64,000 nt of DNA, taken from the IMG/VR virus record IMGVR_UViG_3300045988_176028; one strand, written 5' to 3'. Below, in pieces: positions 83-63,634 of this stretch. Position 1 is the stretch's first letter; each line of letters starts with the position of its first letter. Source of the DNA: a virus. The notes below the pieces were generated by a model, which was not told the DNA's origin, ran no database searches, and worked only from the letters and a program-made list of their open reading frames with translations. Made by a program: the position numbers and the translations under genes.

Positions 83-101
83 TGTGAATGTTTCCAGTAT
101 A
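83..101 (-). promoter_or_regulatory. Box promoter copy (TATACTGGAAACATTCACA)
   Basis: Matches the TATACT-N5-nnTTCACA box. Lies directly after the stop of 122-403 and about 25 nt before the SD/TTG of the next minus-strand ORF. Confidence 0.55.
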
Positions 102-121
102 GCAGAGGGAACGGTGAAACG

Positions 122-403
122 TCAGCGGTCAGTGACCTTGACTTTGTTATACGCAAGAATCGACTCGAACAGTCGGAGTGGATTGCGGGAGTCCAGCTTG
201 TACTGATGGTGATTCCTCGCGGTTTCCGTTTCGAGGAATCGTCCGCTCTCGGACGGCTCTTCCACAATCATGGGAACCCAACGCCATTTCTCACGGCCTT
301 TGCTGTTCTCCCAGACGATTTCCCCGTTTTCCAATACCCGCTTGTAGGCGGTCTTGTCGGGGAATGACGAGTCTATTCGTGCGACTAGATTCAATCGGCT
401 CAT
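122..403 (-). CDS. Hypothetical protein (93 aa)
   Basis: Intact ORF. Its ATG overlaps the stop of the upstream small ORF (ATGA coupling). Third gene of the unit driven by the box at 739-759. Confidence 0.6.
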   Translation of the reverse strand: MSRLNLVARIDSSFPDKTAYKRVLENGEIVWENSKGREKWRWVPMIVEEPSESGRFLETETARNHHQYKLDSRNPLRLFESILAYNKVKVTDR

Positions 404-555
404 GGTTTAATTCCTTCTTCTCTCAGTTCTTCATAGTCTTGCGGCGTGAGGAAAAGCCAAGCTCCACAGTAGGGACACTTGACCCTATTGGCATCGACGG
501 TGTTCTTGCAATACCAGCAGGTGACGTACCATCCGTTTACATATCGGTTTTGCAT
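400..555 (-). CDS. Small zinc-ribbon protein (51 aa; CxxC...CxxC)
   Basis: Hand-translated as MQNRYVNGWYVTCWYCKNTVDANRVKCPYCGAWLFLTPQDYEELREEGIKP. Two CxxC pairs. The stop overlaps the next ATG. Below the ORF-track size cutoff. Confidence 0.5.
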   Translation of the reverse strand: MQNRYVNGWYVTCWYCKNTVDANRVKCPYCGAWLFLTPQDYEELREEGIKP

Positions 556-716
556 TGTTGCTCCTTTTTCTTGAAATCAGAAGACAGTGGTCTTCTAATT
601 TTCGCAAAGAAGTCGATGACTTCGATAAGATAGAGGAACATTTCAAGCAGGACAAAGAAAACGAATCCCAGTACGTCAAAAGTCCAGTTTTTCAGTTTTT
701 TGAATATGTTGGACAT
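537..716 (-). CDS. Small membrane protein (59 aa)
   Basis: Internal ATG (MSNIFKKLKNWTFDVLGFVFFVLLEMFLYLI...) lies 37 nt downstream of the box -10. The longer ORF-track start would overlap the promoter box. One hydrophobic helix. Confidence 0.55.
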   Translation of the reverse strand: MSNIFKKLKNWTFDVLGFVFFVLLEMFLYLIEVIDFFAKIRRPLSSDFKKKEQQCKTDM

Positions 717-738
717 TGCTCTCCTTGTCTTAATAGAT

Positions 739-759
739 TGTGTGAACAACCCCAGTATA
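739..759 (-). promoter_or_regulatory. Box promoter copy (TATACTGGGGTTGTTCACACA)
   Basis: Matches the consensus box at 19/21 positions and is oriented into 537-716. Confidence 0.7.
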
Positions 760-832
760 ACCAAAAAAAGCAAGACTGGCAATCACGCCAAAAACCGGAA
801 AACAAACAGGCTAATCGTATCTTCAGGCAACA

Positions 833-1063
833 TCAGCGGATTACTTTCTCGCTCTGATTTGGCACTTCCAACGGCATAGAACCCGAATATCCCAACTGTT
901 CCTCGCAGTGTGCGATGACGGCTTGCAACGCGAACCGTTCCCCTACAAGAAAATTCTCGTCCGAAGCGGTGGGAATCATCTCGTTGATTCGGGCTATCTG
1001 TTCCTTGCACCAGTCTATGGTGTCATGCAGGGTTTTGTCTTTCTGAGTGACGTTCACCGCCAT
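833..1063 (-). CDS. Hypothetical protein (76 aa)
   Basis: ORF with an AAGGAA SD upstream of the ATG. Last gene of the minus-strand unit that starts at the box at 2965-2985. Confidence 0.55.
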   Translation of the reverse strand: MAVNVTQKDKTLHDTIDWCKEQIARINEMIPTASDENFLVGERFALQAVIAHCEEQLGYSGSMPLEVPNQSEKVIR

Positions 1064-1081
1064 CTTGTTTTCCTTTCTTCT

Positions 1082-1128
1082 GTTAACGGGGCTAAAATCG
1101 ACTTTTTGTTGAAAATGACCCCGTTAAC
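1082..1128. promoter_or_regulatory. Inverted repeat GTTAACGGGG-N27-CCCCGTTAAC
   Basis: Perfect 10-bp arms (1082-1091 and 1119-1128) with a 27-nt spacer. Spans the stop of the 37-aa ORF and sits just before the SD of 833-1063. Confidence 0.4.
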
Positions 1129-1237
1129 TTTCATTTTTCTGACGATAGGGGTCAATGTCGGCGTTTTCGACCATGCGTCCGTAGTCTTGACAACGGCACA
1201 TGGATTGGATTTTTCGCATGTACTTTGGGTCTGCCAT
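1124..1237 (-). CDS. Possible small protein (37 aa)
   Basis: Hand-translated as MADPKYMRKIQSMCRCQDYGRMVENADIDPYRQKNES. GAAGGA SD 8 nt upstream. Starts 5 nt after the stop of 1242-1685. Confidence 0.35.
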   Translation of the reverse strand: MADPKYMRKIQSMCRCQDYGRMVENADIDPYRQKNES

Positions 1238-1241
1238 TGAT

Positions 1242-2964: not shown

Positions 2965-2985
2965 TGTGTGGACATCCCCACTATA
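2965..2985 (-). promoter_or_regulatory. Box promoter variant (TATAGTGGGGATGTCCACACA)
   Basis: TATAGT-N5-TGTCCACACA lies 31 nt upstream of the ATG at 2934. Confidence 0.55.
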
Positions 2986-3009
2986 CCACAATCAGTTGAG
3001 TGACCCTAA

Positions 3010-4499: not shown

Positions 4500-5054
4500 T
4501 TAGTCCTTGTCCAGTTGCCACACGTCGGCCAGCATGTGCAATGCGGTCTGACGGCGCGTCTCATACGGACTGCCAAGCTTCTCACACAGCAGCCATCCTT
4601 TGAACACGGACACCGGGTCGCGTTCGGGGTATTTGTTGAAGTACTCGCAAACATGCATGTACCGTTCGGCCATATCATCGGTGTCCTTCGCCATCTGTTC
4701 GTCGCCAATCGTGTTCCGCCACCATTCAGCGGTCTTGTCGAACTGGTCTTTCAGCCACATGAGCCGGTCGGTGCGCGGCATGGGCGCGGCCAGCAGACGG
4801 GCCAGTTCTGCCAATGCCTGTTCCTCACCCATGTCGGACGTATTGAGGACGGTGTTATCCTCGGCTAGCTCGTACTGCGTGCGGACGATGCGGATAGTGT
4901 CGCGGTCGGGAAGGTTGACGGTAATCTCGTATCGTGCTTGGGGGTCGTACGCGGTGATGCGTCCGAATTGGCGGTCGTTGACCACATGCCAGTCCGGCAG
5001 TGTGTGTGCAACGGTGTTGAGGCCGTTACGTGTTTTCATTTTTGTCAGTTCCAT
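4500..5054 (-). CDS. Hypothetical protein (184 aa)
   Basis: Intact ORF. Its start overlaps the end of 5045-5389 by 10 nt. Confidence 0.65.
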   Translation of the reverse strand: MELTKMKTRNGLNTVAHTLPDWHVVNDRQFGRITAYDPQARYEITVNLPDRDTIRIVRTQYELAEDNTVLNTSDMGEEQALAELARLLAAPMPRTDRLMWLKDQFDKTAEWWRNTIGDEQMAKDTDDMAERYMHVCEYFNKYPERDPVSVFKGWLLCEKLGSPYETRRQTALHMLADVWQLDKD

Positions 5055-5389
5055 TCCTTCGGGGCGACGACAATCCAGCCGTTTGACAGCGGGTATACTT
5101 CGCAGGGTTCGTCCGAGTCCAAATCGTCGTCCAACGGGTTCCAGTCTTCGAGACCGTCGTGGGCGATTTCGTCGTTGAGTGCCCCGCTGTGGATGCGTTC
5201 GGTTTCGACGTGGACATCCTCTGAGGGGAGGAATAGGAACGAGAATGGTTCGAGCATTGGTTCGAAAAGATACGGCAGTCCGTCCTTGGCTCCCCAGTTG
5301 GCGACCATGTTCATGTGTCGTCCGTCATCCGTTTCCACGAGGATTATTCCCGATTCCTGTCCAGTGAGGTCGTGCAGGTTGATGGTCAT
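5045..5389 (-). CDS. Hypothetical acidic protein (114 aa)
   Basis: Start set at MTINLHDL with an AGGAGA SD. The ORF-track start would run through the box at 5415-5435. Confidence 0.6.
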   Translation of the reverse strand: MTINLHDLTGQESGIILVETDDGRHMNMVANWGAKDGLPYLFEPMLEPFSFLFLPSEDVHVETERIHSGALNDEIAHDGLEDWNPLDDDLDSDEPCEVYPLSNGWIVVAPKEWN

Positions 5390-5414: not shown

Positions 5415-5435
5415 TGTGCGAACAACTCCAGTATA
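5415..5435 (-). promoter_or_regulatory. Box promoter copy (TATACTGGAGTTGTTCGCACA)
   Basis: 19/21 match to consensus. The -10 lies 40 nt before the ATG at 5389. Confidence 0.7.
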
Positions 5436-5552
5436 ACCCACAAAAACAGGATTGTCAAACGGAAAGACAAGCAAGGTTCCCCACCCTAGAAAATGACGAA
5501 AACAAAAAAGGGAACTTGTACGTTTCCTGTACAAGTTCCCTCAATTAGGAAA

Positions 5553-6128
5553 TCAATCCCAGTTGCACATGAAGTAGCCATTGGGGTCGATACCATCGAC
5601 AAGATGGGCAGTGGCGCAATCATTCACGGTGAACATAGGGCGGGGCTTCACGTCATAATCACCCCTGATGCGTTTGTTTTTCAACTCCTCCCCCACGAAG
5701 CAGTTCTTGACGGGAACCACACGCCCACCCTGCGGGGAGCAGGTGGCACCATCCACGACCTTGTAGGCGAGCTTGCGGACGTTGACGCTTTTGCCGGTCT
5801 TGCTGACCTTGGTTACTTGATAGAAGTCCACGAGGGTCATGCTGTAACCCCAAGAGCTGACAAAGATGTCCCCCACATGCACTTCCACGTCGGTGGTGGA
5901 GGTCTGTGGCTTGCGGCGTTCCTCTTCGGTGCCGTTGATGCGGAAGTTCTCACGAGTGAGCCAAGGGTAGGTCTTGATGGCCTTGTCGATGAAGTTCTCG
6001 ACGCCCTTCATGGTTCGCCAGTGCTTGCGTCCGCTGAGGTAATTGCGGCTAGTGATGTTGAGGAAGTCGTTGGTGACGTCCACCCAACGATTGGTGTGTT
6101 TGCTGATTTGGACTTCAAGGCTGAGCAT
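5553..6128 (-). CDS. Hypothetical protein, MLSLE-family paralog A (191 aa)
   Basis: Start at MLSLEVQ with an AAGGAGA SD. Alignable by eye with 7621-8148 (MLSLE..., W(R/K)TM(K/R)G(V/L)ENF, VGD...S..GY.M.L...Y.V.KVS..GK.V). Confidence 0.65.
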   Translation of the reverse strand: MLSLEVQISKHTNRWVDVTNDFLNITSRNYLSGRKHWRTMKGVENFIDKAIKTYPWLTRENFRINGTEEERRKPQTSTTDVEVHVGDIFVSSWGYSMTLVDFYQVTKVSKTGKSVNVRKLAYKVVDGATCSPQGGRVVPVKNCFVGEELKNKRIRGDYDVKPRPMFTVNDCATAHLVDGIDPNGYFMCNWD

Positions 6129-6168
6129 TTTTGTCTCCTTTATGTGTGGTGGGTTTTCAACCCCTGTT

Positions 6169-6189
6169 TGTGTGAACAATTCCAGTATA
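6169..6189 (-). promoter_or_regulatory. Box promoter, consensus copy (TATACTGGAATTGTTCACACA)
   Basis: Identical 21-mer to the copies at 6619, 7331 and 8181. Lies 55 nt before the ATG at 6128. Confidence 0.75.
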
Positions 6190-6268
6190 AGCTATGTTTA
6201 AACAAAAGTCAACCCAGAAAAACAGGGGCACAGTTCACCCAAGCAGACCATGACCCAGAGCCTAAAAC

Positions 6269-6580
6269 TCACCGACCAGCCAAGGCGATGGAACGAACCA
6301 TGGAGTCCAGACTTTCGCCTCCCAACGATTTGGTCACATAGTAGCTGTCGTTGTCGAGGTCAAGCCAATAGACGACCTCGTTCTTGTCCTTATGGTACTC
6401 AGAGAAGATATAGCGTTCATCCGGCTCGCTTTTTGGAGACGATTCCTTATGCTCGTCGTAGACGTGCTTCCAGTGCTCTTTCGTCAGCTTATTATGTCGA
6501 ATACACAGCAGAGCGGTGTCATCATCGCTCCAGAATTCCAGTTCGACATCAAACGGCTGGATGGTGTCGCTGATATTCAT
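6269..6580 (-). CDS. Hypothetical protein (103 aa)
   Basis: Start at MNISDTIQPF with an AAGGAGA SD. The upstream ORF-track extension crosses the box. Confidence 0.6.
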   Translation of the reverse strand: MNISDTIQPFDVELEFWSDDDTALLCIRHNKLTKEHWKHVYDEHKESSPKSEPDERYIFSEYHKDKNEVVYWLDLDNDSYYVTKSLGGESLDSMVRSIALAGR

Positions 6581-6618
6581 AGGGGTTCTCCTTTTTTGCT
6601 TGGCTTGTTCGGCCTTTT

Positions 6619-6639
6619 TGTGTGAACAATTCCAGTATA
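6619..6639 (-). promoter_or_regulatory. Box promoter, consensus copy
   Basis: Identical 21-mer, 53 nt before the ATG at 6580. Confidence 0.75.
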
Positions 6640-6706
6640 CCACATGATTGGATGAAAAACAAAGGCGACCAGTCCTAAAAGACCGTCACCCTAAAAAGCC
6701 TCTCAA

Positions 6707-7288
6707 TCAGTCATGAAAATCGACAAACCAGACACGAGCGGAAGAATCATTCCCCAGCCTCTCAAACAGAGCATCCCTTGACACGGGGAACCACACCCCA
6801 CCTTCGTAACCGTCATTGTCGCAGACAACGCTCACATTGCAGTCCAACAGCTCTCTGACCTCGGAATCACCGTCGCTGTAACGTTCTTTGAGTTCGCCGC
6901 AGGTGATTCCCTGAAGCCCGCCTACCATTTCCTCCCAACGACCGCCGAACTCATACCAGTCGTAGAACGAATCGTCGTTGAAAGTAGATACCACATCGCC
7001 GTCTTCGTTCAGACTGTACCCACAGTATTCGGCATAGGCTTCGAGCGCTTCTTCATCATTCAATGCCAGTCGGCGTTCCGCTTTCCCGAAGGCTTCGCTC
7101 GTTCTGTCGTGCTGGTTTTCGCCCTCGCGTTCAATTAGACGCCTGTCGTTCTCTCGATTGTCCTTCAGGAATTCGTCCCGCGTGTAGAGGACGTATTCCT
7201 CGACTTCCTCGTATTCGCTGTATGGGTCGATGATGGCTTCGGCTTCGCTGGTGTTGTTGCCTCCGATGACTGCGCCTAGGAAGTGCAT
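6707..7288 (-). CDS. Hypothetical acidic protein (193 aa; YDWYEFGGRW motif)
   Basis: Start at MHFLGAVIGG with an AAGGAGA SD. The ORF-track extension crosses the box at 7331-7351. Confidence 0.65.
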   Translation of the reverse strand: MHFLGAVIGGNNTSEAEAIIDPYSEYEEVEEYVLYTRDEFLKDNRENDRRLIEREGENQHDRTSEAFGKAERRLALNDEEALEAYAEYCGYSLNEDGDVVSTFNDDSFYDWYEFGGRWEEMVGGLQGITCGELKERYSDGDSEVRELLDCNVSVVCDNDGYEGGVWFPVSRDALFERLGNDSSARVWFVDFHD

Positions 7289-7330
7289 TTTTTCTCCTTG
7301 TTTTTTGGTGGGGTCGTCAAACCTTTTGTT

Positions 7331-7351
7331 TGTGTGAACAATTCCAGTATA
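7331..7351 (-). promoter_or_regulatory. Box promoter, consensus copy
   Basis: Identical 21-mer, 57 nt before the ATG at 7288. Confidence 0.75.
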
Positions 7352-7620
7352 CATCATAGAAAAGGAAAACGCGCCAGCATAACAAAAGAGATAGAAAGGC
7401 ATGATTGCCGCCATTGTTAAAAGCCGTCGGGAACGGTTTCCATGCTTTCGGGAAAAACGTTTGTGTTTCCGTTCGTTCTGACGTGGTTGCCACGGTATCG
7501 TGGTTCAGAAAAAATGTATGGTAGCACCCAAAAAGACAAGGTTTTCAGATAGCTTTCCCCAAAACAACAAAAAAGCCGGAAGCTTGAGGTTTTTTCCTTT
7601 GGTTTCCGGCTTTTTCTGTT

Positions 7621-8148
7621 TTAGTCGTTGTGGTCTTCCATTGACCCGTAGACTGCTTCTTTCATATCCATTGGGTGCGCGTATTCGTAGGTGCTGATTT
7701 TCACGTAGGGTTCGCCGTCATTGTCTACGAGGACGCGATGGCTGTCAGGTTTGCCCGCGAACCGGTTTTCGCTGGTCACGTCGGGGTAGACGGTGCATCC
7801 GGCGATGTCGTTGGGGCTTCCATCATAATTCTTGCGGAGTGGGCGGATTTGCACGGTCTTGCCACTGGGGCTGACCTTGACCACTTCGTAGTAGCTGTTG
7901 AGAATCATGTCGTAGCCGTAGACGGAGTGGAGCACGTCTCCCACTTTGAGGGTTCCCACCGCCTTGGTGTTGTCCTTGCGGGATTCTTCGCCTTTGATTT
8001 TGAAGTCTTCGAGCGTGTAACCGTTATAATCCATGACTTTTTGGCGGAAGTTTTCAAGCCCACGCATGGTCTTCCAAGTACGACGGTAGGTGCCTTGGTA
8101 GGTGCGTTCGCCTTGGCTGTTCTTAGTCCAAAGTTCAAGGCTGAGCAT
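7621..8148 (-). CDS. Hypothetical protein, MLSLE-family paralog B (175 aa)
   Basis: Paralog of 5553-6128. AAGGAGA SD and its own box promoter. Confidence 0.65.
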   Translation of the reverse strand: MLSLELWTKNSQGERTYQGTYRRTWKTMRGLENFRQKVMDYNGYTLEDFKIKGEESRKDNTKAVGTLKVGDVLHSVYGYDMILNSYYEVVKVSPSGKTVQIRPLRKNYDGSPNDIAGCTVYPDVTSENRFAGKPDSHRVLVDNDGEPYVKISTYEYAHPMDMKEAVYGSMEDHND

Positions 8149-8180
8149 TTTGGTTCTCCTTTTTGTTTGCAGTCTTCGCT

Positions 8181-8201
8181 TGTGTGAACAATTCCAGTAT
8201 A
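8181..8201 (-). promoter_or_regulatory. Box promoter, consensus copy
   Basis: Identical 21-mer, 47 nt before the ATG at 8148. Confidence 0.75.
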
Positions 8202-8267
8202 CCTCATGCGAGAACAGCCAAAAAACGGTGAGTCGGAACTTTTCAATTATGATTCAGCCACAAGGGT

Positions 8268-21091: not shown

Positions 21092-21206
21092 TCAATGTCC
21101 TATCCGAAATGTGAAACGTTTCCTTTGCGGATTTCGTCTACCACCTTAGCGGACATGTATGCCGTCAACCTCGTATAGGTGGGAAAATACCTTGAAAAAA
21201 ATTTCA

Positions 21207-21245
21207 GGGTGGACGGTATCCAGACTTTTGCCGGATTGTCCACCC
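21207..21245 (-). terminator. Hairpin terminator after the 481-aa gene
   Basis: 8-bp arms GGGTGGAC/GTCCACCC. On the minus strand it is followed by AAATTTTTTT. Confidence 0.5.
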
Positions 21246-24564: not shown

Positions 24565-24587
24565 GTTTTCTCTTTTCCGCTAGCCAA

Positions 24588-24606
24588 TGTGGACTAATCC
24601 AGTCTA
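24588..24606 (-). promoter_or_regulatory. Box promoter variant (TAGACTGGATTAGTCCACA)
   Basis: TAGACT-N5-AGTCCACA lies 37 nt upstream of the ATG at 24564. Confidence 0.5.
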
Positions 24607-24868
24607 ACGGAAACAACATTGGAAGAATCTGAAAAGCACGGAAATACGACGAAGAGAAAAAACAGCGAAACGGGAGGGGCGGGCTTTTTCTTCTTTAGGG
24701 AACCCGGGGTAAAGGATTCTCGCTTGTTAACGGTTCACACGGTTTCAGATTTTATCCGGTTTTCTTAAGCAATGAGAAAAGCCAGTGAGCGGTAATCTAA
24801 GTTAAGGATTAACCCGTCTCCATTCCCCGACATAGGGGGGTCACGTCTGTTGGCCTCTACCCAGCAAA

Positions 24869-28857: not shown

Positions 28858-28957
28858 GCATTGGTTCACTTTTGAGCCAAATCGTATGATTGAGTATGCT
28901 GATAATCGTTGAAATTCAAGGGGACACGCTTGATTTCACAATAGTTCAAATATGACC

Positions 28958-28977
28958 TATACTTGGACATGTCCACA
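28958..28977 (+). promoter_or_regulatory. Box promoter variant on + strand (TATACTTGGACATGTCCACA)
   Basis: Same architecture as the minus-strand boxes but points into the + strand SSB gene. Contains the perfect palindrome TGGACATGTCCA. Confidence 0.55.
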
Positions 28978-29095
28978 TAAAAGAACTGACTTCCTCCACT
29001 CATGTCAGAGCATGTTCAAACTGTTTCCCGAATGGAAAAGGTTCATGCCTGATATTGGTGTGAGAGGAAAACGAAAATAAAGGAGAAAGCCAAAA

Positions 29096-35709: not shown

Positions 35710-38700
35710 TTACCATTCCTCTTCCTCCACGTCCTCGTCCTCGACGTTTTCCGAACCGTTGTTGGAAGTGAAGATTTCCTTGATATCCTCCACGTCGAGC
35801 TTTGTGAACTGTTCCGCAGCTCGCGGCATGTACTGCTGGTAGTCGATGGGTTCCGGGTTCGGAATGTCGGCAACGAGCTTAGCCAGTTCGTCCTGACCGC
35901 CCGAATACCATGTCTGCACGGCCATCAGAGTGCCTTGCATGCTTTCGTACATTCCACGACCGACCGGGATTAGACCATCCTCGTTCTTCAACGACTTCTG
36001 GGTGCGGTTCGCTTCGGAGAGATTCTGGGCGCTGACCACGCCTGCGGGGGAGTCCATTCCCAAGAGGATGCGGCCCAACGAACGGAAGAACGCGTTGCCG
36101 TTGTACTTCTTCATATCGTCCATCGTCAAACGCTGAGCGCCGAAAATGCATCGGATGCCAGCGGTACGACCCTGCACGATAATCTTGCTCAACGCGCTCA
36201 TCGTCCGGGCGATGGAAGCGTTCGTGGCGGACACGGCGGCATTGTCGTTGGCAATCTGCATGTCCTTCTGAGGATTCTGCGTGGTTTTGCCGGTCTCCTG
36301 CAAGTACGAGTTGAACTCATCGAACAGGATGTTCAACGGTTTCAGATGCTTGCGGTCTGCCTCCTCCACGTCATCCGGATTCAGTTCGAAGATGTTGCCC
36401 ACGCCATACTTGTTGTTGATGCGCACGCGTTCGGCCATCTCCTCACGCGCCCAAGAAATCACAGCCTCCGTCTCACGCAACTGGTACAGGCCGACGAACG
36501 CCAGAGCCTTCGGCTTCGCCCACTGGGTGAAATCGATGCAACCCTTCGACGGGTCGATGAGAATGATGTCCTCGCCTTTCAGCAAAGCCTCCGCAATGAC
36601 AATCTGCGACGCGGACGACTTGCCACTACCGCTCTTACCGCTGATGAGCAGATGTGGCGTGGTCTTCGTATCCCAATACACGGGATTACCCAAATCGTCC
36701 ACGCCAATCGGGAACTTGCGACGGTCGCACTTCTTGGCCGCGTTCCAATCGGCCATGACGCTTGTCGGGAACGGACTCTTCTTCGCCAACACCATGGAGA
36801 AATCCGTGCCGTAGGCTTGGATGATTCGACCATACGGATAATTCGCTTCGGTGAGGAATTTGCCGATATTGTATTGGGGTTTGTCCAAATCCAATCCGCC
36901 CGGAATCTGGAATTTGGCGAGCAGGACTTCCTTGTTGTTCGGAAGCACACCCAACGATTCGACGGTCGGCGTCTTGCCGGAACTGTCCTGAACTCCGGCC
37001 ACACCCCAAGCGTCAGACAAGGCTAGTTGAATGAGTTCCTTTTGGGCGGCTCTAATCTTCCAATGGGACACACTGTCCGGGTCGGTGCCCAAATACGGGT
37101 TGGAGCACAGCCAGACGGTCGCACGGTCCGCCGACTGCCAATCCCAATACACTCGTTCGGAACCGACGGCGGCACTGATGTTCGCGCTTTTCCTGCGCAC
37201 GTCGGCAACGGTTCCGCCACGTCCCAAATGGAATCCGATACGCCAGATGGCCGTGTCCTTGCCCATCTGCTGACAGGAGTCGATGACCACTTCCGCACGG
37301 GATGGCATCACGTCCATGAGCGCCTTGTAGATGAGCGCCTGAGCGTAACGACGGTATTCCGGACGGGAACCGGTCAGACGGTCGATTCTCAAAGGGGCGT
37401 TGTCCGCCATGACCAGCGAGGTGATGCCGTTTTCCTCGATGAGTCCGACGAAATCCTTGGACGGGTCTAGACTCGATAGGTCGTAGCGCATGAAGTCGGA
37501 CGTGCGGTCTGGTGCCGTCAGCATTTCCGGCATGAACGAGATAGACCAGCCCTCACTGGTTTCGGCAATCTTCTCTTCGTCGTAATTGCAGACGGGAAGA
37601 TTCAGTTTCGAGCCGACGATATCCTGCCAAGCCTTCTGGTCTTGCTTGAACCGGCGGGACAGCTCGATATACCGGTTGAACGATTTGCTTTGCGTCAAAC
37701 CCGCCGGACGATACTTGTTGCCCTTGTCGTTCAGTCTCGTTTCGGGTTGTGCGGCGAGCATGAACGAGTTCTCCAAGTCGGAGAAGATAGGCATTTTGAT
37801 GATGTCGGCGGGGCTGAACGGGTTCGCCAGCCATTCCAATCCCAATTGGGTGATGAGAGCGCCACCACTGGGAGGATTGTGCAACAGCATCAGCCATGCC
37901 GCCTCCTCCTCATCGTCTGCGGCGGCGTCGATGACCTGAACGAGCGGCGGACGTTTATGCCATTCGTTCTGAGCGCAATAATCGTAGGCGATGTCGGCAA
38001 CCAGTTGGGCGATTTTTGCTCCGACCTTCTTCTTGGTGATGTCGGGAATGCAGGACTCGTCCTTGCCGTATACGATTCGCACTAGGCTTGGGTCGAACTG
38101 CCAGCCGTTCTCCTTGATGGTTTTGGCGGCGAGCAGGGCTATGAAATTGTATCCGCTGGAAGTGGCGGAGGAGCGCAATGGTTCCACACCGGCCTTCAAT
38201 ACCTTCTCATTGCTTCTTGGGGCGTCATACTGGTCTTGCAAGCGGACGCGCATGACGTGCATCGGATTCTTGCGATGGCCGACCTTCTTGACTTGGGTGA
38301 CGTAGGCTCCTCCCCACATCTTTGCCAAGTCGTCGCTTTTGACCCAACCGTCCAGCATGCGTTGCGCTTTTACAAGTTCACGCCAATATGCGGTCTGCTT
38401 CTTCTTGTCGAATTTCGTCACGAGCGACAGGAACAGAAGTGCGGGAAGACTGAGCGTCGTGGGAATGTCCACGAACCCCAAATATGCGCAAGCTCCCAGT
38501 ATAACAAGAAGAATAACAGCGGAGACGATGGCGGTGGTCTTCTGCGACGGTTTACCTTTTTGCAGGAAGGCGAACACGCTCACACCCTGATAGATATGCC
38601 GACGGTCTACAAGACGGTCACGCCAATGGATGACGCCCATGACCGACATGAAACCGAATATCATGTTGAACGGTATCGTCCACAATCCGCATCCACGACT

Positions 38701-48586: not shown

Positions 48587-48610
48587 GCCTCTTATGATAC
48601 CATAGGTTTT

Positions 48611-51300: not shown

Positions 51301-51319
51301 GGTGTTATCCTTACTCTTA

Positions 51320-51338
51320 TGTGACTACTTCCAGTATA
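51320..51338 (-). promoter_or_regulatory. Box promoter variant (TATACTGGAAGTAGTCACA)
   Basis: TATACTGG...TCACA architecture oriented into 50761-51300. Confidence 0.55.
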
Positions 51339-51374
51339 GGGTGTTTTTGCGAATGTGTCCAATACTGGAACCAT

Positions 51375-51908
51375 TCACACCTCACGTAGTCGAATACGGG
51401 TAAGCCCCGAACGTCGGGAAGTGGTAGCGGACTTGCGTTTGCCCTCGGCGTCGGCCATGGTCAGCATGGGTACCTTGCGTTCGAACACCAAGGACAATGG
51501 TTTGCCCTTGTCCTTACCTGCGGCGAGTTCATACAGGTCTGGGTTGAACCCTTCCAATGGTCTCAGGTTGTCCAACGCTATCCAGTATTTGGCTGGTTCT
51601 TTAGACCATGGTTTGGGACATTGGTAGAAGCTTCCTTCGTCCCATGTCCTTGGATTGTATGGGCTTCCGAAGCCAGTCACCTCGCCTATGAGCATGAGGT
51701 CTTCGTCGTGCGCGTACAGGATTACCTGCTCCACGTTTTTCATGACGCCTATGATTCCGCATTTCCATAGGACGTGGTTGTCGTGTTCTTTGCTGAATCG
51801 GAGATATTCCTGCATCACGGTGTGTGGTTGGAAGTATACGCGGCCTTGTCGGGGTGCGTATCCGATTCGTATCATCAGGATTTCTTTTGAGTGTGTTGTA
51901 CCAGTCAT
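51375..51908 (-). CDS. Hypothetical protein (177 aa)
   Basis: Intact ORF after the box at 51926-51944. The start could be the ATG at 51908 or the internal MIRIGY. Confidence 0.6.
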   Translation of the reverse strand: MTGTTHSKEILMIRIGYAPRQGRVYFQPHTVMQEYLRFSKEHDNHVLWKCGIIGVMKNVEQVILYAHDEDLMLIGEVTGFGSPYNPRTWDEGSFYQCPKPWSKEPAKYWIALDNLRPLEGFNPDLYELAAGKDKGKPLSLVFERKVPMLTMADAEGKRKSATTSRRSGLTRIRLREV

Positions 51909-51925
51909 GCTCCCATATTACCATA

Positions 51926-51944
51926 TGTGGACAATTCCAATATA
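51926..51944 (-). promoter_or_regulatory. Box promoter variant (TATATTGGAATTGTCCACA)
   Basis: Differs from consensus at 2 positions. Oriented into 51375-51908. Confidence 0.6.
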
Positions 51945-52164
51945 ACGTGTAGCACGTTAGGGGTAGCCTAAACTCAGTGCGCGTCACCCTTCTTCGACTT
52001 GCCGGACTTGCGAGAAGCCTTCAAAACGGCGGCAAACATACGAGCATCGTCCATCACCAGTTTTCGGGCGGGGATGCCCGGTATTTCAATGCCGGGAGGA
52101 ACTGCCCCCTCCTTTCGGTCTAAGTCTTCTTTCATTATACGCGCGTAGTGATATAATCGGAATC

Positions 52165-54764: not shown

Positions 54765-54790
54765 ATTTCTCTCCTAAACAGTAGGCTGTA

Positions 54791-54809
54791 TGTGAACGCT
54801 TCCAGTATA
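54791..54809 (-). promoter_or_regulatory. Box promoter variant (TATACTGGAAGCGTTCACA)
   Basis: Lies 40 nt upstream of the ATG at 54764. Confidence 0.65.
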
Positions 54810-54814
54810 GCATA

Positions 54815-55734: not shown

Positions 55735-56004
55735 TCAGTTTTTCAGGCCGTAGTAGACGACCCCGTTTGTTTCTTTTGTGCGGTCGAACAGTTCGTGGCC
55801 GCGTTGTGTGGTTTCGATGCTCCTGATTACGACTTCCGGCGCGTCGAAAATGGTCATGGGTTCCTGTCCTGCAAGTTTCGCCCACTGGTTTTGGATGACG
55901 GTGAGCGTGACCCGGCTGTTGGAGTCGAGTTGTCGGCATTGTCGCTCGTGCTGGTGTTTGCGCACGTAGTCGGATGCGACATCGGCCAGTGTGGTTCTAG
56001 GCAT
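55735..56004 (-). CDS. Hypothetical protein (89 aa)
   Basis: Start at MPRTTLADV, downstream of the box at 56029-56047. Confidence 0.55.
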   Translation of the reverse strand: MPRTTLADVASDYVRKHQHERQCRQLDSNSRVTLTVIQNQWAKLAGQEPMTIFDAPEVVIRSIETTQRGHELFDRTKETNGVVYYGLKN

Positions 56005-56028
56005 GTGTTTTCCTTGCTTTTGCTTGAA

Positions 56029-56047
56029 TGTGGTTGATTCCAGTATA
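56029..56047 (-). promoter_or_regulatory. Box promoter variant (TATACTGGAATCAACCACA)
   Basis: TATACTGGAAT core plus CCACA. Oriented into 55735-56004. Confidence 0.55.
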
Positions 56048-56060
56048 ACAAGGAAATGTT

Positions 56061-56363
56061 TCAAATTTGGCTTTTACATAAATTCCGACGCCAACGGGCG
56101 AAATATATCCAAGCCGGAATGTCGGCGGAAACCGCCGCCACACCAATCAAGCCAGTCAGAATAGGTCGGACAATCATATCCTCTGGTTCCGAAACCGGCA
56201 TGAACCAGAGAAGCGGCACCGTTCCAGCCAAGACAACAATACTTACGGCGAGCATGACGAATAGCATGACCTGTTCTATGGGATGTTTGGGTTTATCTGT
56301 TTTAGTCCGCGACCTTTTGATTTTTGGCGGCTTACCGTCATGCTTGCCATGTCTGCCATACAT
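56061..56363 (-). CDS. Small membrane protein (100 aa)
   Basis: Start at MYGRHGKHDGK (AGGGAG SD). Basic N-terminus then 3 TM segments. The ORF-track start overlaps the box at 56482-56500. Confidence 0.5.
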   Translation of the reverse strand: MYGRHGKHDGKPPKIKRSRTKTDKPKHPIEQVMLFVMLAVSIVVLAGTVPLLWFMPVSEPEDMIVRPILTGLIGVAAVSADIPAWIYFARWRRNLCKSQI

Positions 56364-56481
56364 GGTGGTCTCCCTGTTGTCTGGATGGCTGGACGCCATG
56401 CGTGTGATGGACGCGGGGTTGATGACGGTGGTGAGTTCCCCGGTGTCTTCTGATTGTGGTCTCAAAAATACTCCCTCTCTA

Positions 56482-56500
56482 TGTAGATAATCCCAGTATA
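56482..56500 (-). promoter_or_regulatory. Box promoter variant (TATACTGGGATTATCTACA)
   Basis: TATACTGG core. Oriented into 56061-56363. Confidence 0.45.
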
Positions 56501-56611
56501 GTACGTGATAGTACATAGTTTTTTCTCGCGCATCACAAAACGGATAGTCAAAGTCGATAACAGAAAGGAGCGTGTCCAAAAACGCGCTCCTTAAAAACAA
56601 GCCAACAGACA

Positions 56612-57145
56612 CTACCAGTCGACGAGCATGTCGCCGTGGACGATTTCTCTCGCATACTTAATCAGGTCGGCGTCCGATTCGACACTGGGGTCGTCCACCA
56701 GCCTTTTCAGAGTGTGTAACACCGCTTGCTCGTATCCTTCCCAAAACTCTTTCGGAAGATATTTGCTCCAAAAATATTCCCCCATGAAAGCCACGCAGGG
56801 TTTGCACATTCGGACTATTGGAATATGCTCTTTCGGAGCGTTCTCGTCTCCCATGGTGAGGACTTCCAGATAAACGTACTTTTTATCCGCTTTGAAGAAC
56901 AGAATGTTCTCTTTTGCTGGATTAGGGTCGCCTTCCAGTACGAAGTCCGGGTCTCCGAAATGCATCCCGAATACGATTCCAGCATCGTAATTGTTGAGCC
57001 GATTGACGCAATCGCGGAGTGCTGAACTGTTGCATCGACACCAGTTCGGATAATCCGATAACGACACCTCGCATCTGGCACATGCGGGGCATTCTTTTTC
57101 TTCGTTTTCCAATATTATTCCTCTCTTTTTAGATAGCCGTTTCAA
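56612..57145 (-). CDS. Cys-rich hypothetical protein (177 aa)
   Basis: CPACARC...CRC...C plus CKPC motifs. Overlaps the ATP-grasp gene end by 17 nt. Confidence 0.6.
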   Translation of the reverse strand: MKRLSKKRGIILENEEKECPACARCEVSLSDYPNWCRCNSSALRDCVNRLNNYDAGIVFGMHFGDPDFVLEGDPNPAKENILFFKADKKYVYLEVLTMGDENAPKEHIPIVRMCKPCVAFMGEYFWSKYLPKEFWEGYEQAVLHTLKRLVDDPSVESDADLIKYAREIVHGDMLVDW

Positions 57146-58127
57146 GCAGAACCGGGGGAAGACACTGTTTCCAATTGACTCGCAACGCGCTCGTCAAATC
57201 GTTCATGTTCAATGCGAACAGTCCGGAATTCATTAAACCGTTCAATTCCACGATTGACACTTCACCGTTGATAAGACACAGGTCGAGCGTGTACGCGCCG
57301 TAACCGCAGTGGGCGAACATGCGTCCGGCTCGCGTGGCGAACTCACGGTATCGTTCCGCCAAGTCCGGTCTGAGTTCAACGTTCTTAACGGTGGTGTCGT
57401 CACGATGCTTCTGCATTTGATGGTCGAATCTCGTATGCATGTTGTCGATTGGTGTTTTCAACCCGATATTGCCAGCGCCGCAGACAGGCTGGTCGCCAAC
57501 CATGAACATGCGATACTCATATTGGATATCGACATTCTCCTGAATAAGCAGAGCATTCGGGTCATCATCCGCATGAACAAACGCCCAACCTCCCCACTCC
57601 TGCACCTGCTGTTCAAGCTCGTCAAGATTAGTTCCGGAGATTTTCAAATTCGGTAGCAGTTTGGCTTGGTTCATGAATTTGATGAAGAACGACGAGACAC
57701 CGTCACTAATAAGAGAAGCGAACGCATGTTTGATGTCATCCTCGTAGATGGAACTGAGTTTCGTCTTCCGATGCATGAGCATGCGCACGTTGGGATTGAT
57801 GGCGTAACGGTCGGCATGGGACGGGTCTGCATACTGGTCGATTGGCGGCATGTCCAACACTTGTCCGAAGTGCGGTAATCCGATTAGCCTCTTCGAGTCG
57901 AGGTCGGTTTTCCCATGCACTCGGACTATGGCGTCCTCACCTAGATTGCGGACGCCCCAGTAGAGTCGGGAACAGGTTTCAATCCAATCCTCACGGTCTC
58001 CACCTTCCGGCTTGACCTTGCCGACGTACTTTTCCCATATTTGAATGTAATAGTTAGGGATGCCGGTCATGTCGTCAGGGCATTTGACGGGTGGAATGGA
58101 AATGACCCACGGTTTCCTCTTGGTCAA
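57129..58127 (-). CDS. ATP-grasp-like protein (R2K-clade-like, 332 aa)
   Basis: LLIQENVDIQYEYRMFMVGDQPV and YTLDLCLINGEVSIVELNGLMNSG resemble the C-terminal ATP-grasp core. Assignment is from memory only. Confidence 0.5.
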   Translation of the reverse strand: MTKRKPWVISIPPVKCPDDMTGIPNYYIQIWEKYVGKVKPEGGDREDWIETCSRLYWGVRNLGEDAIVRVHGKTDLDSKRLIGLPHFGQVLDMPPIDQYADPSHADRYAINPNVRMLMHRKTKLSSIYEDDIKHAFASLISDGVSSFFIKFMNQAKLLPNLKISGTNLDELEQQVQEWGGWAFVHADDDPNALLIQENVDIQYEYRMFMVGDQPVCGAGNIGLKTPIDNMHTRFDHQMQKHRDDTTVKNVELRPDLAERYREFATRAGRMFAHCGYGAYTLDLCLINGEVSIVELNGLMNSGLFALNMNDLTSALRVNWKQCLPPVLLETAI

Positions 58128-60707: not shown

Positions 60708-60883
60708 GATTCGTTCTCGCCATCTTTATCGAGTTCATTGCGAAGGATTTCCAAAGCCATGTCGATAGCCTCGTCCCAGCCTTTCCGCCATCCGATGACA
60801 AACGCTTCCGCCGGGGCGACTTTACCAAGCTTCGATTGGAGCAATGAGTGTACGGCCCTTTCTTTCAGTTCGTTTTCGTTCAA
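60704..60883 (-). CDS. Small hypothetical protein (about 59 aa, TTG start)
   Basis: The TTG overlaps the upstream TGA (TTGA) with GGAAAGGAG 7 nt upstream. The ORF-track start lies inside the upstream gene. Confidence 0.45.
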   Translation of the reverse strand: MNENELKERAVHSLLQSKLGKVAPAEAFVIGWRKGWDEAIDMALEILRNELDKDGENES

Positions 60884-61506
60884 ACTTTCTGCTCCTTTCC
60901 CTTGTCGGCCATCAGTGCGACGGCCAACCATGCCGGTAGTGGTGTATTCTGTAATTTCTGTGCTTCCTTCCGGGTTTCAGCCACGCGAAGGAACGGCTCC
61001 TTGTCTTCGGTGAGCATGTCGCCCGCCATTTTGACCGTTTTTTTCGAAGTGGATAGAAGCTGTTCGGCCTTCTGGTCTCCGCCCCTCCACATGACTTGGA
61101 ATCTAAGAGTTGCCCACAACCATGGATTGTCCCAAGAGTCCTTCGGAATATCGTTAGCCGCGAACAAGTGGAGCAAATGTCGGACACGTCGGGTCAGGCT
61201 GGCTTTGCTTGCGGAATATTTGCCGCGTTTGGAACCAGAGAGGAACGCTTTCATTCCTGTGTCGAACGCGTCTGGATTGGTGTGTTGGAGCACGCTCCCG
61301 GACAGGATGGTGTCGTTCACGGTTTCGGCGCTGGTCAGATGCCATCCGTGGCAGACGGGGCAATGGTATGCGCGTTTCTCAGTGTGTTTCGGATTTCCTC
61401 GTCCTTTGATGACGGCCAAGGCGAGTTGGGCTTCCTTTTGGTTGGGGTAACGCACTTTGTTTCGGTTGAGAGTGCATTTACCTGCGGTCTTGTATAAGCT
61501 GTGCAT
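60880..61506 (-). CDS. Hypothetical protein (208 aa) with N-terminal CPVCHGWH zinc knuckle
   Basis: Intact ORF with SD AGAGGAGA. YPNQKEAQLAL...AYHCPVCHGWHLTS motif. Confidence 0.6.
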   Translation of the reverse strand: MHSLYKTAGKCTLNRNKVRYPNQKEAQLALAVIKGRGNPKHTEKRAYHCPVCHGWHLTSAETVNDTILSGSVLQHTNPDAFDTGMKAFLSGSKRGKYSASKASLTRRVRHLLHLFAANDIPKDSWDNPWLWATLRFQVMWRGGDQKAEQLLSTSKKTVKMAGDMLTEDKEPFLRVAETRKEAQKLQNTPLPAWLAVALMADKGKEQKV

Positions 61507-61606: not shown

Positions 61607-61636
61607 GGTGTTCTCCTTTTTTGGAATGGTTTTTTA

Positions 61637-61655
61637 TGTGAACACCCCCAGTATA
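61637..61655 (-). promoter_or_regulatory. Box promoter copy (TATACTGGGGGTGTTCACA)
   Basis: Strong match. Heads the unit 61606-58422. Confidence 0.65.
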
Positions 61656-61678
61656 ACATAAACCATTAAAGAGGGCAA

Positions 61679-61939
61679 CTACCCCCTCTTCACAACCTTC
61701 GCACCATACTTATCAGCCCACTGACGAGCCAACGTCTTCGCCTGTTCCCTACAAGCACGACGACTGAAAGCCGCACTGAACGTATGAGAACGCTTCATAT
61801 CCCAAACCTTCCCATTCTCACTATCATGCCGACGATACAATACAACCTTCAAAGCGATGACGGAACCATACTTGTCCCGCACCTTCTCAATGACCACGAC
61901 CTTCTTGTTCTTGTGGCTTTTGTCGCTATGCTGGGACAT
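61679..61939 (-). CDS. Hypothetical basic protein (86 aa)
   Basis: Intact ORF with a GGAGGAGCC SD. Confidence 0.55.
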   Translation of the reverse strand: MSQHSDKSHKNKKVVVIEKVRDKYGSVIALKVVLYRRHDSENGKVWDMKRSHTFSAAFSRRACREQAKTLARQWADKYGAKVVKRG

Positions 61940-61979
61940 TCCGGCTCCTCCTAAAAAAGAAAAACAGCGAGCACAATAT

Positions 61980-62000
61980 TGTGCCCACTGTTCCAGTGTA
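61980..62000 (-). promoter_or_regulatory. Weak box relative (TACACTGGAACAGTGGGCACA)
   Basis: TACACTGGAA...CACA lies 41 nt upstream of the ATG at 61939. Confidence 0.35.
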
Positions 62001-62029
62001 ACAATAGAGATTTGGAAAACGCTAAGAAC

Positions 62030-62233
62030 TCAGTAATCCGACTCCAACCTCCGTGCGGCACCAAGCCCATGGTCGGTCAGCCTGATGCCCTCGTGTCCCA
62101 ACAGAGTACGCCAATAGTCGGCATACCCGTTATCTATAAGGGACATAGCCGCGTCCTGATTATGTTCGTTAACCTCCGCTAAGCGTCCACGATGGTATGC
62201 GTCGCAGAGGAGCCTTTCGGCTTTTTTATCCAA
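62030..62233 (-). CDS. Possible small protein (about 67 aa from TTG; start uncertain)
   Basis: The C-terminal part of the 139-aa ORF-track frame that is not overlapped by 62179-62748. GAAAGG lies 8 nt before the TTG at 62233. The internal ATG (MSLIDNGY) is an alternative. Confidence 0.3.
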   Translation of the reverse strand: MDKKAERLLCDAYHRGRLAEVNEHNQDAAMSLIDNGYADYWRTLLGHEGIRLTDHGLGAARRLESDY

Positions 62234-62748
62234 TGCATTCGCCTTTCGATATAATACGAGAACATGTACTTCCGACGCTCCCAGACCGGCGAATAAATCA
62301 CATACTTGATGGTGTCCGTATCCCGCAGGATGACGCTGATTTCGCCAACACTGTCCCGTTGGATGAACTGCACGATACCTCGAACGGTTAGAGAACGCCG
62401 ACTCAATAATATCCGGTCGCCAAGCTGAATTCGCTGCCCAACGAAACAATCATCTAATTCGGTCAGCAGTTCCGCACCGGTCTCGATGGACGAGTGGAAA
62501 CTGTTCAGCGGGTTACGGAGAAAACTTCCAACCTTACAGTTCCAGTCGCGCTGTGCGTCGTGCAAGGTTTGGAAGCCGACTCCGCCAGATGTTTGCAAAC
62601 CATTATCCACTGGACAAAAGTGGGAGTATCCCCAACCTTTCGGCAGAAAATATTGCTCGTCGTCCCAAGTGCAGTGGAGTTCAGATTTAGCCCGATACTT
62701 AAATTCGGGAATGCTGTTACAGCATGGGCATGTAAGAAGGTTTCTCAC
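62179..62748 (-). CDS. Hypothetical protein (189 aa) with N-terminal CPCC cluster
   Basis: Intact ORF overlapping the stop of 62745-63002 by 4 nt. Confidence 0.6.
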   Translation of the reverse strand: MRNLLTCPCCNSIPEFKYRAKSELHCTWDDEQYFLPKGWGYSHFCPVDNGLQTSGGVGFQTLHDAQRDWNCKVGSFLRNPLNSFHSSIETGAELLTELDDCFVGQRIQLGDRILLSRRSLTVRGIVQFIQRDSVGEISVILRDTDTIKYVIYSPVWERRKYMFSYYIERRMHWIKKPKGSSATHTIVDA

Positions 62749-63002
62749 CCCAGTCCTTTCTGAGTCCTTAAGAGTTCGTCCAGTTTTTCCTCGATGCTTT
62801 CCAACCTCAAGCGCAACGCCTTCTGGCTTTCGTAGATGGCCGCAACCTCTCCTGAGACTTCGTAGAGGGTTTTGTTGCCATACATGTCATGCTTCTTGTC
62901 GGCCTGTTTCTCAAGCTTCGCTATCTCCCGCTCCCGTTGCGACGGCTTGCGTGATTTCAGATAGTCCCTGCATTCGGGACTGAACATGTCCTCGTATCCC
63001 AT
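62745..63002 (-). CDS. Hypothetical coiled-coil protein (85 aa)
   Basis: Starts directly after the stop of the exonuclease gene. Heptad-like KALRLRLESIEEKLDELL. Confidence 0.55.
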   Translation of the reverse strand: MGYEDMFSPECRDYLKSRKPSQREREIAKLEKQADKKHDMYGNKTLYEVSGEVAAIYESQKALRLRLESIEEKLDELLRTQKGLG

Positions 63003-63587
63003 TTAGCGGCCAAATTCCTCTCTGCGCATGGCTTCATACAGCATGTTTTCCTGAGTCGCGTCGGACAAGGCGCGATGCTCTTCCACGTCACCGATACCAT
63101 AGTCGCGGATAAGCACGGCAACCTTATGGCTTGGCTTTTCGGGATGGATTTTCCGGCTCATTTCCAACGTGTCCACGAACCGGTGTGGAAAGAAGAACAT
63201 TCCACCGTTCACGGTTTTCATGGCCGCGTCCAAGAAACTTAAATCGAATGACGCGTTATGCGCCATGATGATGGTTCGCGGGCCAAGCCACTTGTCGAAT
63301 CGGATGATGGCTTGGCTTACGTCGGGTTGTCCGATGACCATGCTGTCGTTGATTCCGGTGAGCGAGGTGATGTATTCGGGGATTGGCTGGTGTGGGTCAA
63401 TCAGTTGCTCGTATCGGTCTACGAGTTTTCCGTCATGGATTTTCACGGCTCCGATTTCGATGAGTTTAGCCCCGTTTTCGGGTTTGAAGCCGGTGGTTTC
63501 GGTATCCAAGACCACGTAATCGTAGAGTGGTGTTTTCATTGGGTCGATTCTTCTGGGGTCTCGACTTTGGTATTTGTCCCAGCTCAT
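63003..63587 (-). CDS. DnaQ-like DEDDh 3'-5' exonuclease (DNA Pol III epsilon family)
   Basis: ExoI VVLDTETTG, ExoII AHNASFDLSFL and ExoIII HRALSDA. Confidence 0.8.
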   Translation of the reverse strand: MSWDKYQSRDPRRIDPMKTPLYDYVVLDTETTGFKPENGAKLIEIGAVKIHDGKLVDRYEQLIDPHQPIPEYITSLTGINDSMVIGQPDVSQAIIRFDKWLGPRTIIMAHNASFDLSFLDAAMKTVNGGMFFFPHRFVDTLEMSRKIHPEKPSHKVAVLIRDYGIGDVEEHRALSDATQENMLYEAMRREEFGR

Positions 63588-63613
63588 GGTGTGGTCTCCT
63601 TGGATAAGTGAAT

Positions 63614-63634
63614 GTGTGGACGTTTCTAGTATAA
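63614..63634 (-). promoter_or_regulatory. Box promoter variant (TATACTAGAAACGTCCACACA)
   Basis: TATACT-N5-CGTCCACACA lies 42 nt upstream of the ATG at 63587. Confidence 0.55.

Follow-up and report, generated by a model that had tools for sequence, protein, structure and literature searches.

The closest described relative of the element considered here is a promoter motif of pMP7017, a 190-kb megaplasmid of Bifidobacterium breve. Dineen et al. (2024, PMC10832533) reported in this plasmid a 34-bp motif overlapping the -10 element, with the consensus AWAYATGY-TATACT-GAATATGTCCACATAAAAWA, which was first noted at six genes with high expression and later at 13 further sites, the resulting 19 being predicted to drive 56 genes, or ~24% of the coding capacity. 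In their RNA-seq data the motif heads highly transcribed units; it occurs in pMP7017 homologues, is absent from bifidobacterial chromosomes (a statement for which, as regards the pMP7017-type sequence, their study is the sole basis), and was read by the authors as a transcription-factor binding site (PMC10832533). Here we analyze a box repeated in a 64-kb stretch of DNA (IMG/VR record IMGVR_UViG_3300045988_176028; the whole stretch is called the window), which is a diverged relative of pMP7017 with syntenic gene order and proteins 30-67% identical in a protein-level comparison. The window box is the same element as the published motif, in a diverged lineage, and is in this sense already known. 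It shows the hallmark of the pMP7017 motif, TATACT continuing as G-N5-GTCCACATAAAA; compared with the published consensus, the window version reads tGn-TATACT-GGAATTGTTCACACAAA, and the window lineage differs from pMP7017 in having its own sub-variant, GG..TT..GTTCACAC. To the description in PMC10832533 the present analysis adds four points not discussed there: the fixed spacing within the motif, its extended -10, variants between lineages, and a site ahead of a transfer-messenger RNA (tmRNA) gene. A literature search found no later work identifying a factor that binds the motif.

In IncP-1 plasmids, KorA operators lie at the -10 of seven promoters, and other plasmid networks are the CUP regulon of the IncN plasmid pKM101 and that of the IncW plasmid R388. 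Like these networks, the box places one plasmid-specific sequence at many strong promoters, as some of them do in a fixed position over the -10, with coordinate control of accessory, establishment, and maintenance genes; unlike their operators, which are palindromes or longer repeats with an identified repressor, its conserved block is asymmetric and lies at +1 to +11. The stoperators of Cluster A mycobacteriophages, bound by gp71 in phage L5, block elongation in the silenced prophage and resemble the box in their actinobacterial host, their short asymmetric site present in 20-30 copies, their transcription-tied orientation, and their lineage-specific variants. Stoperators, however, are not fused to a -10, whereas the box is the promoter of highly expressed genes. 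Early promoters of phage T5 have a conserved downstream region governing late initiation steps, and the middle and late promoters of Thermus phage P23-45 are extended -10 promoters that come into use once a phage factor has blocked recognition of the -35. Here too a mobile element has its own class of promoters for the host polymerase, defined by an extended -10, a conserved initial-transcribed region, or both, but conservation in the box is much tighter, and the box is not known to depend on a switch factor binding sigma region 4, though the pMP7017 regulon holds a WhiB-family gene. Finally, the Frpo-type single-stranded DNA (ssDNA) promoters of plasmid leading regions need a long imperfect hairpin that recreates the -35 and -10; like them, the boxes drive ssb and anti-restriction-type genes on conjugative plasmids, but they have no such hairpin when the region from -60 to +60 is folded.

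A repeated promoter box in the window

Nineteen strong copies of the box lie in the window (Table 1). A position weight matrix (PWM) built from these copies scores 18 of them at 24-37 bits, the best score among 30 Markov shuffles used as background being 17.2 bits, while the nineteenth, at 28958(+), is a 1-nt insertion variant checked by eye. Their alignment gives the consensus tGn-TATACT-GGRRtTGTYCACAyA, also written TATACT-G-GAATT-GTTCACACAAA. The original prediction had singled out a 21-mer, TATACTGGAATTGTTCACACA, as exact at 6169, 6619, 7331, and 8181 and near-exact at 739 and 5415; all six are indeed present on the - strand, the latter two with two mismatches, and the window holds 8 matches with at most three mismatches where 0 are expected. 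Each of the 13 variant copies listed beside them was likewise recovered in its place. Four supposed weaker relatives fell away, those at 22763, 28838, and 46811 scoring below 7 bits and that at 61980, with 10.7 bits, being the 5' arm of a 15-bp terminator hairpin; with these dropped, the proposed total of at least 23 copies shrinks to a supportable 19. Beyond them there are two partial sites, an inverted copy at 51361(+) and an intragenic one at 38503(-). Nor is the box element-wide, as had been suggested, since the adhesin block (9-22.7 kb) is free of it, as are both transfer blocks (30.3-39.1 and 40.9-50.4 kb) apart from the doubtful 38503.

All 19 copies, including both on the + strand, are intergenic and point, as predicted, at a same-strand open reading frame (ORF) downstream; for the copy at 83-104 this gene extends past the window edge. 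The expectation that a Shine-Dalgarno (SD) sequence and start codon follow shortly downstream holds for 12 of 18 copies, in which SD, start codon, and an ORF of at least 40 amino acids (aa) are found at 30-69 nt; among random positions the share is 8.4% (P = 1.5e-9). Conservation continues beyond the -10, as had been noticed, with 0.9-1.8 bits per position out to +20 counted from the hexamer's first T, and 0.9-2.1 bits when the hexamer is included. The accompanying statement that no -35 is conserved needs qualification: the alignment contains no strong -35, but 6 of the 19 boxes have one matching in at least 4 of 6 positions at a 17-18 bp spacer. The canonical extended -10 TGn is present in eight of them. 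Taken as a promoter signal with TATACT as its -10, the box is supported by its geometry, by the extended -10 TG, and by the published pMP7017 RNA-seq (PMC10832533), and a division into one- to few-gene units under a common signal fits. All 11 occurrences of GTYCACAYA in the window lie within boxes, as do 14 of the 16 of TATACTGR.

Anatomy and distribution of the family motif

From 183 non-redundant sites across the plasmid family, with spacing counted over 282 cases, we obtained the motif TGn-TATACT-G-N5-GTYCACAYAAA, which extends from -3 to +24 relative to the hexamer's first T (T G n T A T A C T G R A W W T G T Y C A C A Y A A A a a). TG occupies the extended -10 place (-15/-14, one base before TAnnnT) at 130 of the 183 sites, and a -35 with at least 4 of 6 matches at a 16-18 bp spacer is found at 58 sites versus 13-39 at control offsets, a modest enrichment; the -35 is weak. 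Hexamer and GTYCACA are separated by 6 nt in 276 of 282 cases; the six cases of 7 nt represent one orthologous promoter, that of the Enc34-type ssDNA-binding gene beside the XRE gene, where the pMP7017 ortholog (106704) of the window site deviates in the same way, with 7-nt spacing and a T after the hexamer. Information content reaches ~2 bits per position at +2 and at +4 to +7 counted from the predicted start site, and the start codon lies 33-65 nt from the hexamer's first T (median 46) at 146 sites.

The leaders are A-rich and unstructured (folding mean z +0.27). Folding of the region from -60 to +60 gave a mean z of -0.6, its low values being explained by upstream terminators, and yielded no hairpin around the box and no inverted-repeat signal; no Rfam family matches the leader. 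On inspection of the consensus, the window variant has no dyad or repeated half-sites, while in the pMP7017 variant 5 of 10 pairs are symmetric. The halves of the box are coupled: neither is enriched alone, and solo half-boxes in pMP7017 stay at about chance level. Independent half-sites were accordingly rejected, solo GTYCACAYA occurring at about the chance rate. One solo TGTCCACATAAAAAAC without a -10 hexamer, at 60373 of pMP7017 (L006 10373) and in six relatives, stands 30 nt before an internal start codon, and its leader geometry is that of the full boxes.

The PWM made from the window alone finds 26 sites of at least 18 bits in pMP7017, among them the published consensus, all directed into a downstream ORF whose start codon mostly lies 40-54 nt past the hexamer's first T. 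The box is confined to this plasmid family. The window-type 19-mer was matched singly in four unrelated taxa across 185,579 species-representative genomes and never in Bifidobacterium; a 40-nt pMP7017-type box occurs in six records only of PLSDB (72,556 plasmids), all of them Bifidobacterium megaplasmids of 169-198 kb with 15-20 places each; and 50,697 phage records contain no real match, just chance single ones in Bacillus phages. A degenerate 21-mer matched more than 117 stretches from human-gut metagenomes and more than 89 from IMG/VR. The published host promoter consensus is a plain TTGACA-17-TATAAT without the block (PMC5746004). An ordinary host consensus or a chance repeat, to which the conformity of TATACT with generic TAnnnT would lend itself, is therefore refuted as an explanation, given the excess of matches and scores over background in the window, the absence from Bifidobacterium genomes and real phages, the restriction to six PLSDB megaplasmids, and a host consensus lacking the block.

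Boxes are retained before orthologous genes whose flanks cannot be aligned, namely the exonuclease gene, the 50761-51300 family, the ssDNA-binding gene, and the 23109-24143 operon. For the five boxes at 5415-8204, pMP7017 offers no counterpart; the homologous genes abut there (the junction orthologous to 5415..5438 has no box), so that boxes, sometimes together with a terminator, are gained and lost like moron units. Recent duplication as the origin of the four identical copies was rejected, since only two of the downstream genes are paralogous, at 36% identity. In L168, a relative of the 5.4-kb region of the window, two tandem boxes ~60 nt apart stand where the window has an intervening gene, which suggests cassette loss beside boxes.

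Sub-variants of the box are linked to lineage: the A..C..T and G..x..C forms share no locus (0/115), and a third lineage (VirB4 64% identical; L228, L229, L243, L196) has ACGTGA-TAYACT-G-N5-GTCCACACAAAA with a variable spacer. G-C-T forms, however, occur in both window and pMP7017. Strict lineage dialects as proof of a co-evolving factor were hence rejected, the overlap amounting to a partial continuum that may reflect descent.

Candidate readers of the block beyond the -10

We propose that the conjugative Bifidobacterium megaplasmids of the pMP7017 family have in the box a promoter class of their own. Its upstream half (TGn, TATACT, and G) would serve as an extended -10 core promoter for the host's housekeeping sigma-A holoenzyme, a type of core that would render the -35 weak or dispensable. 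Transcription would most likely start at the invariant G 7 nt after the hexamer (T = -1, G = +1), and transcripts would all begin with GUYCACAYAAA, followed by a short, A-rich, unstructured leader, the SD, and the start codon, each box launching one to five genes, mostly small accessory, DNA-metabolism, or unknown ones. Recognition by a sigma factor encoded on the plasmid, or by an RNA polymerase dedicated to these promoters, appears very improbable. A contiguous asymmetric motif of ~25 bp spanning the start recalls the promoters of phage single-subunit polymerases, and the weak -35 and many copies per replicon would suit such an enzyme, but TGn and TAnnnT at canonical spacing, with a 17-bp -35 in about a third, are hallmarks of a housekeeping sigma. 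This option of the original prediction also drew no support from the genes: the pMP7017 annotation contains no sigma or polymerase gene, Pfam scans of the large ORFs of the window, which is about one third of the plasmid, returned FtsK, VirB4-like, hydrolase, and TnpB domains or nothing, and the large unassigned ORFs of window and pMP7017 have no DxDGD catalytic motif, though a function could be assigned to none of a large number of other ORFs.

For the conserved block itself, the reading that we tentatively prefer, with somewhat less than even confidence, is that a plasmid-encoded factor reads it at the DNA level, atop the host sigma-A extended -10 promoter, in line with the published proposal (PMC10832533). 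The block from -6 to about +11 would be a cis-element for this factor, overlapping the polymerase footprint and thereby placing about a quarter of the plasmid's genes under common control. We take it for a factor site because it is too specific for the polymerase's own need. The repA and repB promoters of pMP7017, whose starts have been mapped, are ordinary promoters without the block (PMC8313286), which together with the host consensus indicates that the polymerase itself does not need it. Identical 21-mers heading paralogs of 36% identity, and boxes kept although the proteins are only 30-67% identical, support the same reading.

Several points weigh against a DNA-binding factor. The block is asymmetric and short, with no dyad or direct repeat on inspection, which is unusual for a dimeric regulator. 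Positions +1 to +9 are where a repressor would sit, yet in cells with the plasmid the promoters that match the motif best rank with the most strongly transcribed ones. A function at the RNA 5' end or in the initial-transcribed sequence would account at least equally well for the strict spacing to the -10 and for a block starting exactly at the predicted +1. The published RNA-seq starts carry an error of ~20 nt. The overlap of sub-variants falls short of demonstrating co-evolution with a specificity factor. Lastly, no plasmid-encoded binder candidate was found when RepA and the XRE protein, both suggested by the original prediction, were examined.

RepA is an unlikely binder, as its repeats do not change along with the box variant. 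Upstream of two tandem RepA_C paralogs in the window (25270-26178 and 26275-27165) lie direct repeats of 21-22 bp (ATATTCAAATTGTGAACTTTTC; 3.5 copies at 25009-25082 and a copy near 25117), which probably correspond to the repeats bound by RepA in pMP7017. The window repeats hold GTTCACA in reverse, but the pMP7017 RepA repeats, GGTGTCARAATTCTAAG, lack that plasmid's GTCCACA, so the resemblance between repeat and box in the window is put down to chance. The XRE protein encoded at 28153-28815 is conserved (40% identity) beside one deviant box, but nothing ties it to the others, and the promoter of its own gene is not a box. The deviant box at 28955-28979 holds a perfect palindrome, GGACATGTCC, possibly a local operator for the XRE protein. 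Compared only by eye, LexA, CRP, PhoP, and MtrA sites do not fit the box.

Rather than an operator-binding protein, the reader could be an unrecognized plasmid-encoded specificity factor associated with the polymerase, for example a sigma-A-binding protein, such as the WhiB-like one or one of many unassigned small proteins, that reads TATACTG / GTYCACA from the -10 element to +7, although we consider this decidedly unlikely. The WhiB-family gene mentioned above lies inside the pMP7017 regulon; none was found in the window or in window-type loci. If such a factor existed, the host polymerase would treat the boxes as a private class, and lineage variants would co-evolve with it.

The fixed register with the -10, a downstream half that is never enriched alone, and the A-rich, unstructured leaders are also what would be expected if no dedicated factor were involved and the +1 to +11 block were an optimized initial-transcribed sequence that fixes the start and speeds promoter escape. 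The boxes would then be the plasmid's strongest constitutive promoters, homogenized by cassette exchange and short-patch conversion. This account is unlikely, though it has to be taken seriously: the most highly transcribed units have the best matches, gain and loss at orthologous junctions is moron-like, in some cases with a terminator just upstream, a non-coding tmRNA-tRNA operon is headed by a box as well, and phage T5 early promoters provide a precedent. On the other hand, ~2 bits at +2 and +4 to +7 in 183 contexts are far above any known polymerase preference, the invariant C at -8 departs from the host optimum TATAAT, and identical boxes on paralogs sharing 36% of their residues require strong selection or ongoing conversion.

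The same asymmetry that sits badly with a dimeric regulator is expected of an RNA site, and the start of the conserved block exactly at the predicted +1, running to about +11, recalls a shared 5' leader, GUYCACAYAAA, read by a plasmid or host RNA-binding or -processing factor with a role in stability, translation, or self/non-self distinction. With the hexamer spacing so strict and the discriminator conserved, a single 5' end would be fixed; the length of the 5' untranslated region is tightly distributed, the solo copy without a -10 is conserved in pMP7017 and six relatives, and the plasmids encode an RNA ligase and an exonuclease along with a tmRNA and a tRNA array. We nevertheless regard this possibility as unlikely, because the leader has neither RNA structure nor an Rfam family, a candidate reader protein is missing, and the invariant C at -8 would go unexplained; to our knowledge there is no bacterial precedent for an RNA 5' leader tag of this kind. 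The tmRNA genes bear on it most directly. In pMP7017 (120545) and five relatives (L211, L118, L037, L083, L085) an array of ~20 tRNAs is headed by a tmRNA, with a box 331-578 nt upstream of the tmRNA and none inside the array. Across a spacer of 330-580 nt a translational role would be meaningless, and because it precedes a non-coding array, this box favors a transcription-level over a translation-level role for the whole element. An operator, an RNA leader, and an intrinsic initial-transcribed element cannot be separated by sequence alone.

Sites, carrier plasmid, and significance

Table 1. Box copies and box-like sites in the window, with promoter features and downstream units
Site	Position	Strand	Features and downstream unit
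Box TGC TATACT GGAAACATTCACATC	81..104	-	29.7 bits; ORF from TTG at 58 runs off window
Box GGT TATACT GGGGTTGTTCACACA	739..762	-	-35 TTGCCA at 17 bp; gene 537-716
Box TGG TATAGT GGGGATGTCCACACA	2965..2988	-	start codon 2934
Box, perfect -35 TTGACA at 17 bp	5415..5438	-	gene 5045-5389; 14-bp terminator hairpin (5542-5508) just upstream
Exact 21-mer box	6169..6192	-	-35 TTGACT; gene 5553-6128 (phrog_37844)
Exact 21-mer box, TGG extended -10	6619..6642	-	best score, 37.1 bits; gene 6269-6580
Exact 21-mer box	7331..7354	-	gene 6707-7288
Exact 21-mer box	8181..8204	-	gene 7621-8148, paralog of 5553-6128 (36% aa identity)
Box CGT TAGACT GGATTAGTCCACATT	24586..24609	-	genes 24289-24564, then 23109-24143; ortholog operon in pMP7017 also boxed (108558)
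Variant box TATACT T GGACATGTCCACATAAAA, 7-nt spacing	28955..28979	+	Enc34-type ssDNA-binding gene 29096-30217; divergent from XRE gene 28153-28815
Box TGC TATACT GAGAATGTCCACAAA	39285..39308	+	gene 39363-39830
Box, -35 TGGACA	51318..51341	-	gene 50761-51300; ortholog pMP7017 83862-84401 also boxed
Partial inverted copy	51358..51381	+	18.8 bits; back-to-back with 51318-51341; function doubtful
Box CGT TATATT GGAATTGTCCACATA	51924..51947	-	gene 51375-51908
Box TGC TATACT GGAAGCGTTCACATA	54789..54812	-	DUF3310 gene 54192-54764
Box TGT TATACT GGAATCAACCACATT	56027..56050	-	gene 55735-56004
Box TAC TATACT GGGATTATCTACATA	56480..56503	-	gene 56061-56465
Box TGT TATACT GGGGATGTTTACAAA	58328..58351	-	unit including ATP-grasp gene 57129-58127
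Box TGT TATACT GGGGGTGTTCACATA	61635..61658	-	terminator hairpin 61692-61667 precedes; unit including 60880-61506
Box CGT TATACT AGAAACGTCCACACA	63613..63636	-	RNase_T 3'-5' exonuclease gene 63003-63587; ortholog pMP7017 82026-82622 also boxed
Box-like site without GTYCACA	38483..38506	-	21 bits; inside FtsK/SpoIIIE gene; probably no member

The back-to-back arrangement of 51358-51381 and 51318-51341 is conserved in L215, a relative whose VirB4 is 100% identical.

When a 4-kb stretch of the window was used in a search, only pMP7017 was matched, with a coverage of 10%, and no phage match was found. Genes shared by window and pMP7017 encode a VirB4-like protein, FtsK/SpoIIIE, a cell-wall hydrolase, RepA, the XRE protein, and the Enc34-type ssDNA-binding protein, as well as a PD-(D/E)XK nuclease, an RNA ligase, an exonuclease, and TnpB. 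The closest relatives of the window (VirB4 97-100% identical) are IMG/VR contigs of 110-205 kb, and its lineage is present in metagenome and IMG/VR contigs only, being absent from PLSDB. IMG/VR classes the whole plasmid family as viral (loci L126-L243, e.g. IMGVR_UViG_3300045988_172980, with contigs of 40-205 kb), yet the window has genes for conjugation (VirB4-like, FtsK/SpoIIIE, and a CHAP/glucosaminidase hydrolase), and no capsid or terminase match was seen in it. In the metagenome contig OKVT01000001.1 (549,176 bp), two loci 75 kb apart, L095 and L098, are 99.9% and 92-99% identical to pMP7017, and their presence within one 549-kb contig could be due to an integrated copy, a concatemer, or a misassembly.

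Other features of the window include an IS200/IS605 unit at 47429-49015, with a TnpB/Cas12f-like gene and TnpA, and a second TnpB at 52165-53607, both interrupting transfer or accessory regions. The region 9032-16864 encodes a pilin- or adhesin-like surface protein of 2610 aa that contains nine FctA/Spy0128 isopeptide domains, and is followed by the gene for a 1338-aa protein homologous to that of pMP7017 19606-22335. The window has no tRNA genes. An MmeI-like system carried by the plasmid had prompted the idea of the box as a methylation target.

Plasmids of the pMP7017 family occur in about 10% of gut metagenomes from infants and mothers (PMC10832533). About a quarter of the genes of this megaplasmid family would depend on one signal, including those for anti-restriction and defense, DNA metabolism, and the tmRNA-tRNA array. 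The remaining interest lies in the mechanism, that is, in what reads the block at +1; once known, the reader of this block beyond the -10 would give insight into plasmid establishment and the tuning of expression in Bifidobacterium, and would turn the box into a strong promoter-leader cassette of small size, possibly a switchable one, for use in a genus in which engineering is difficult.

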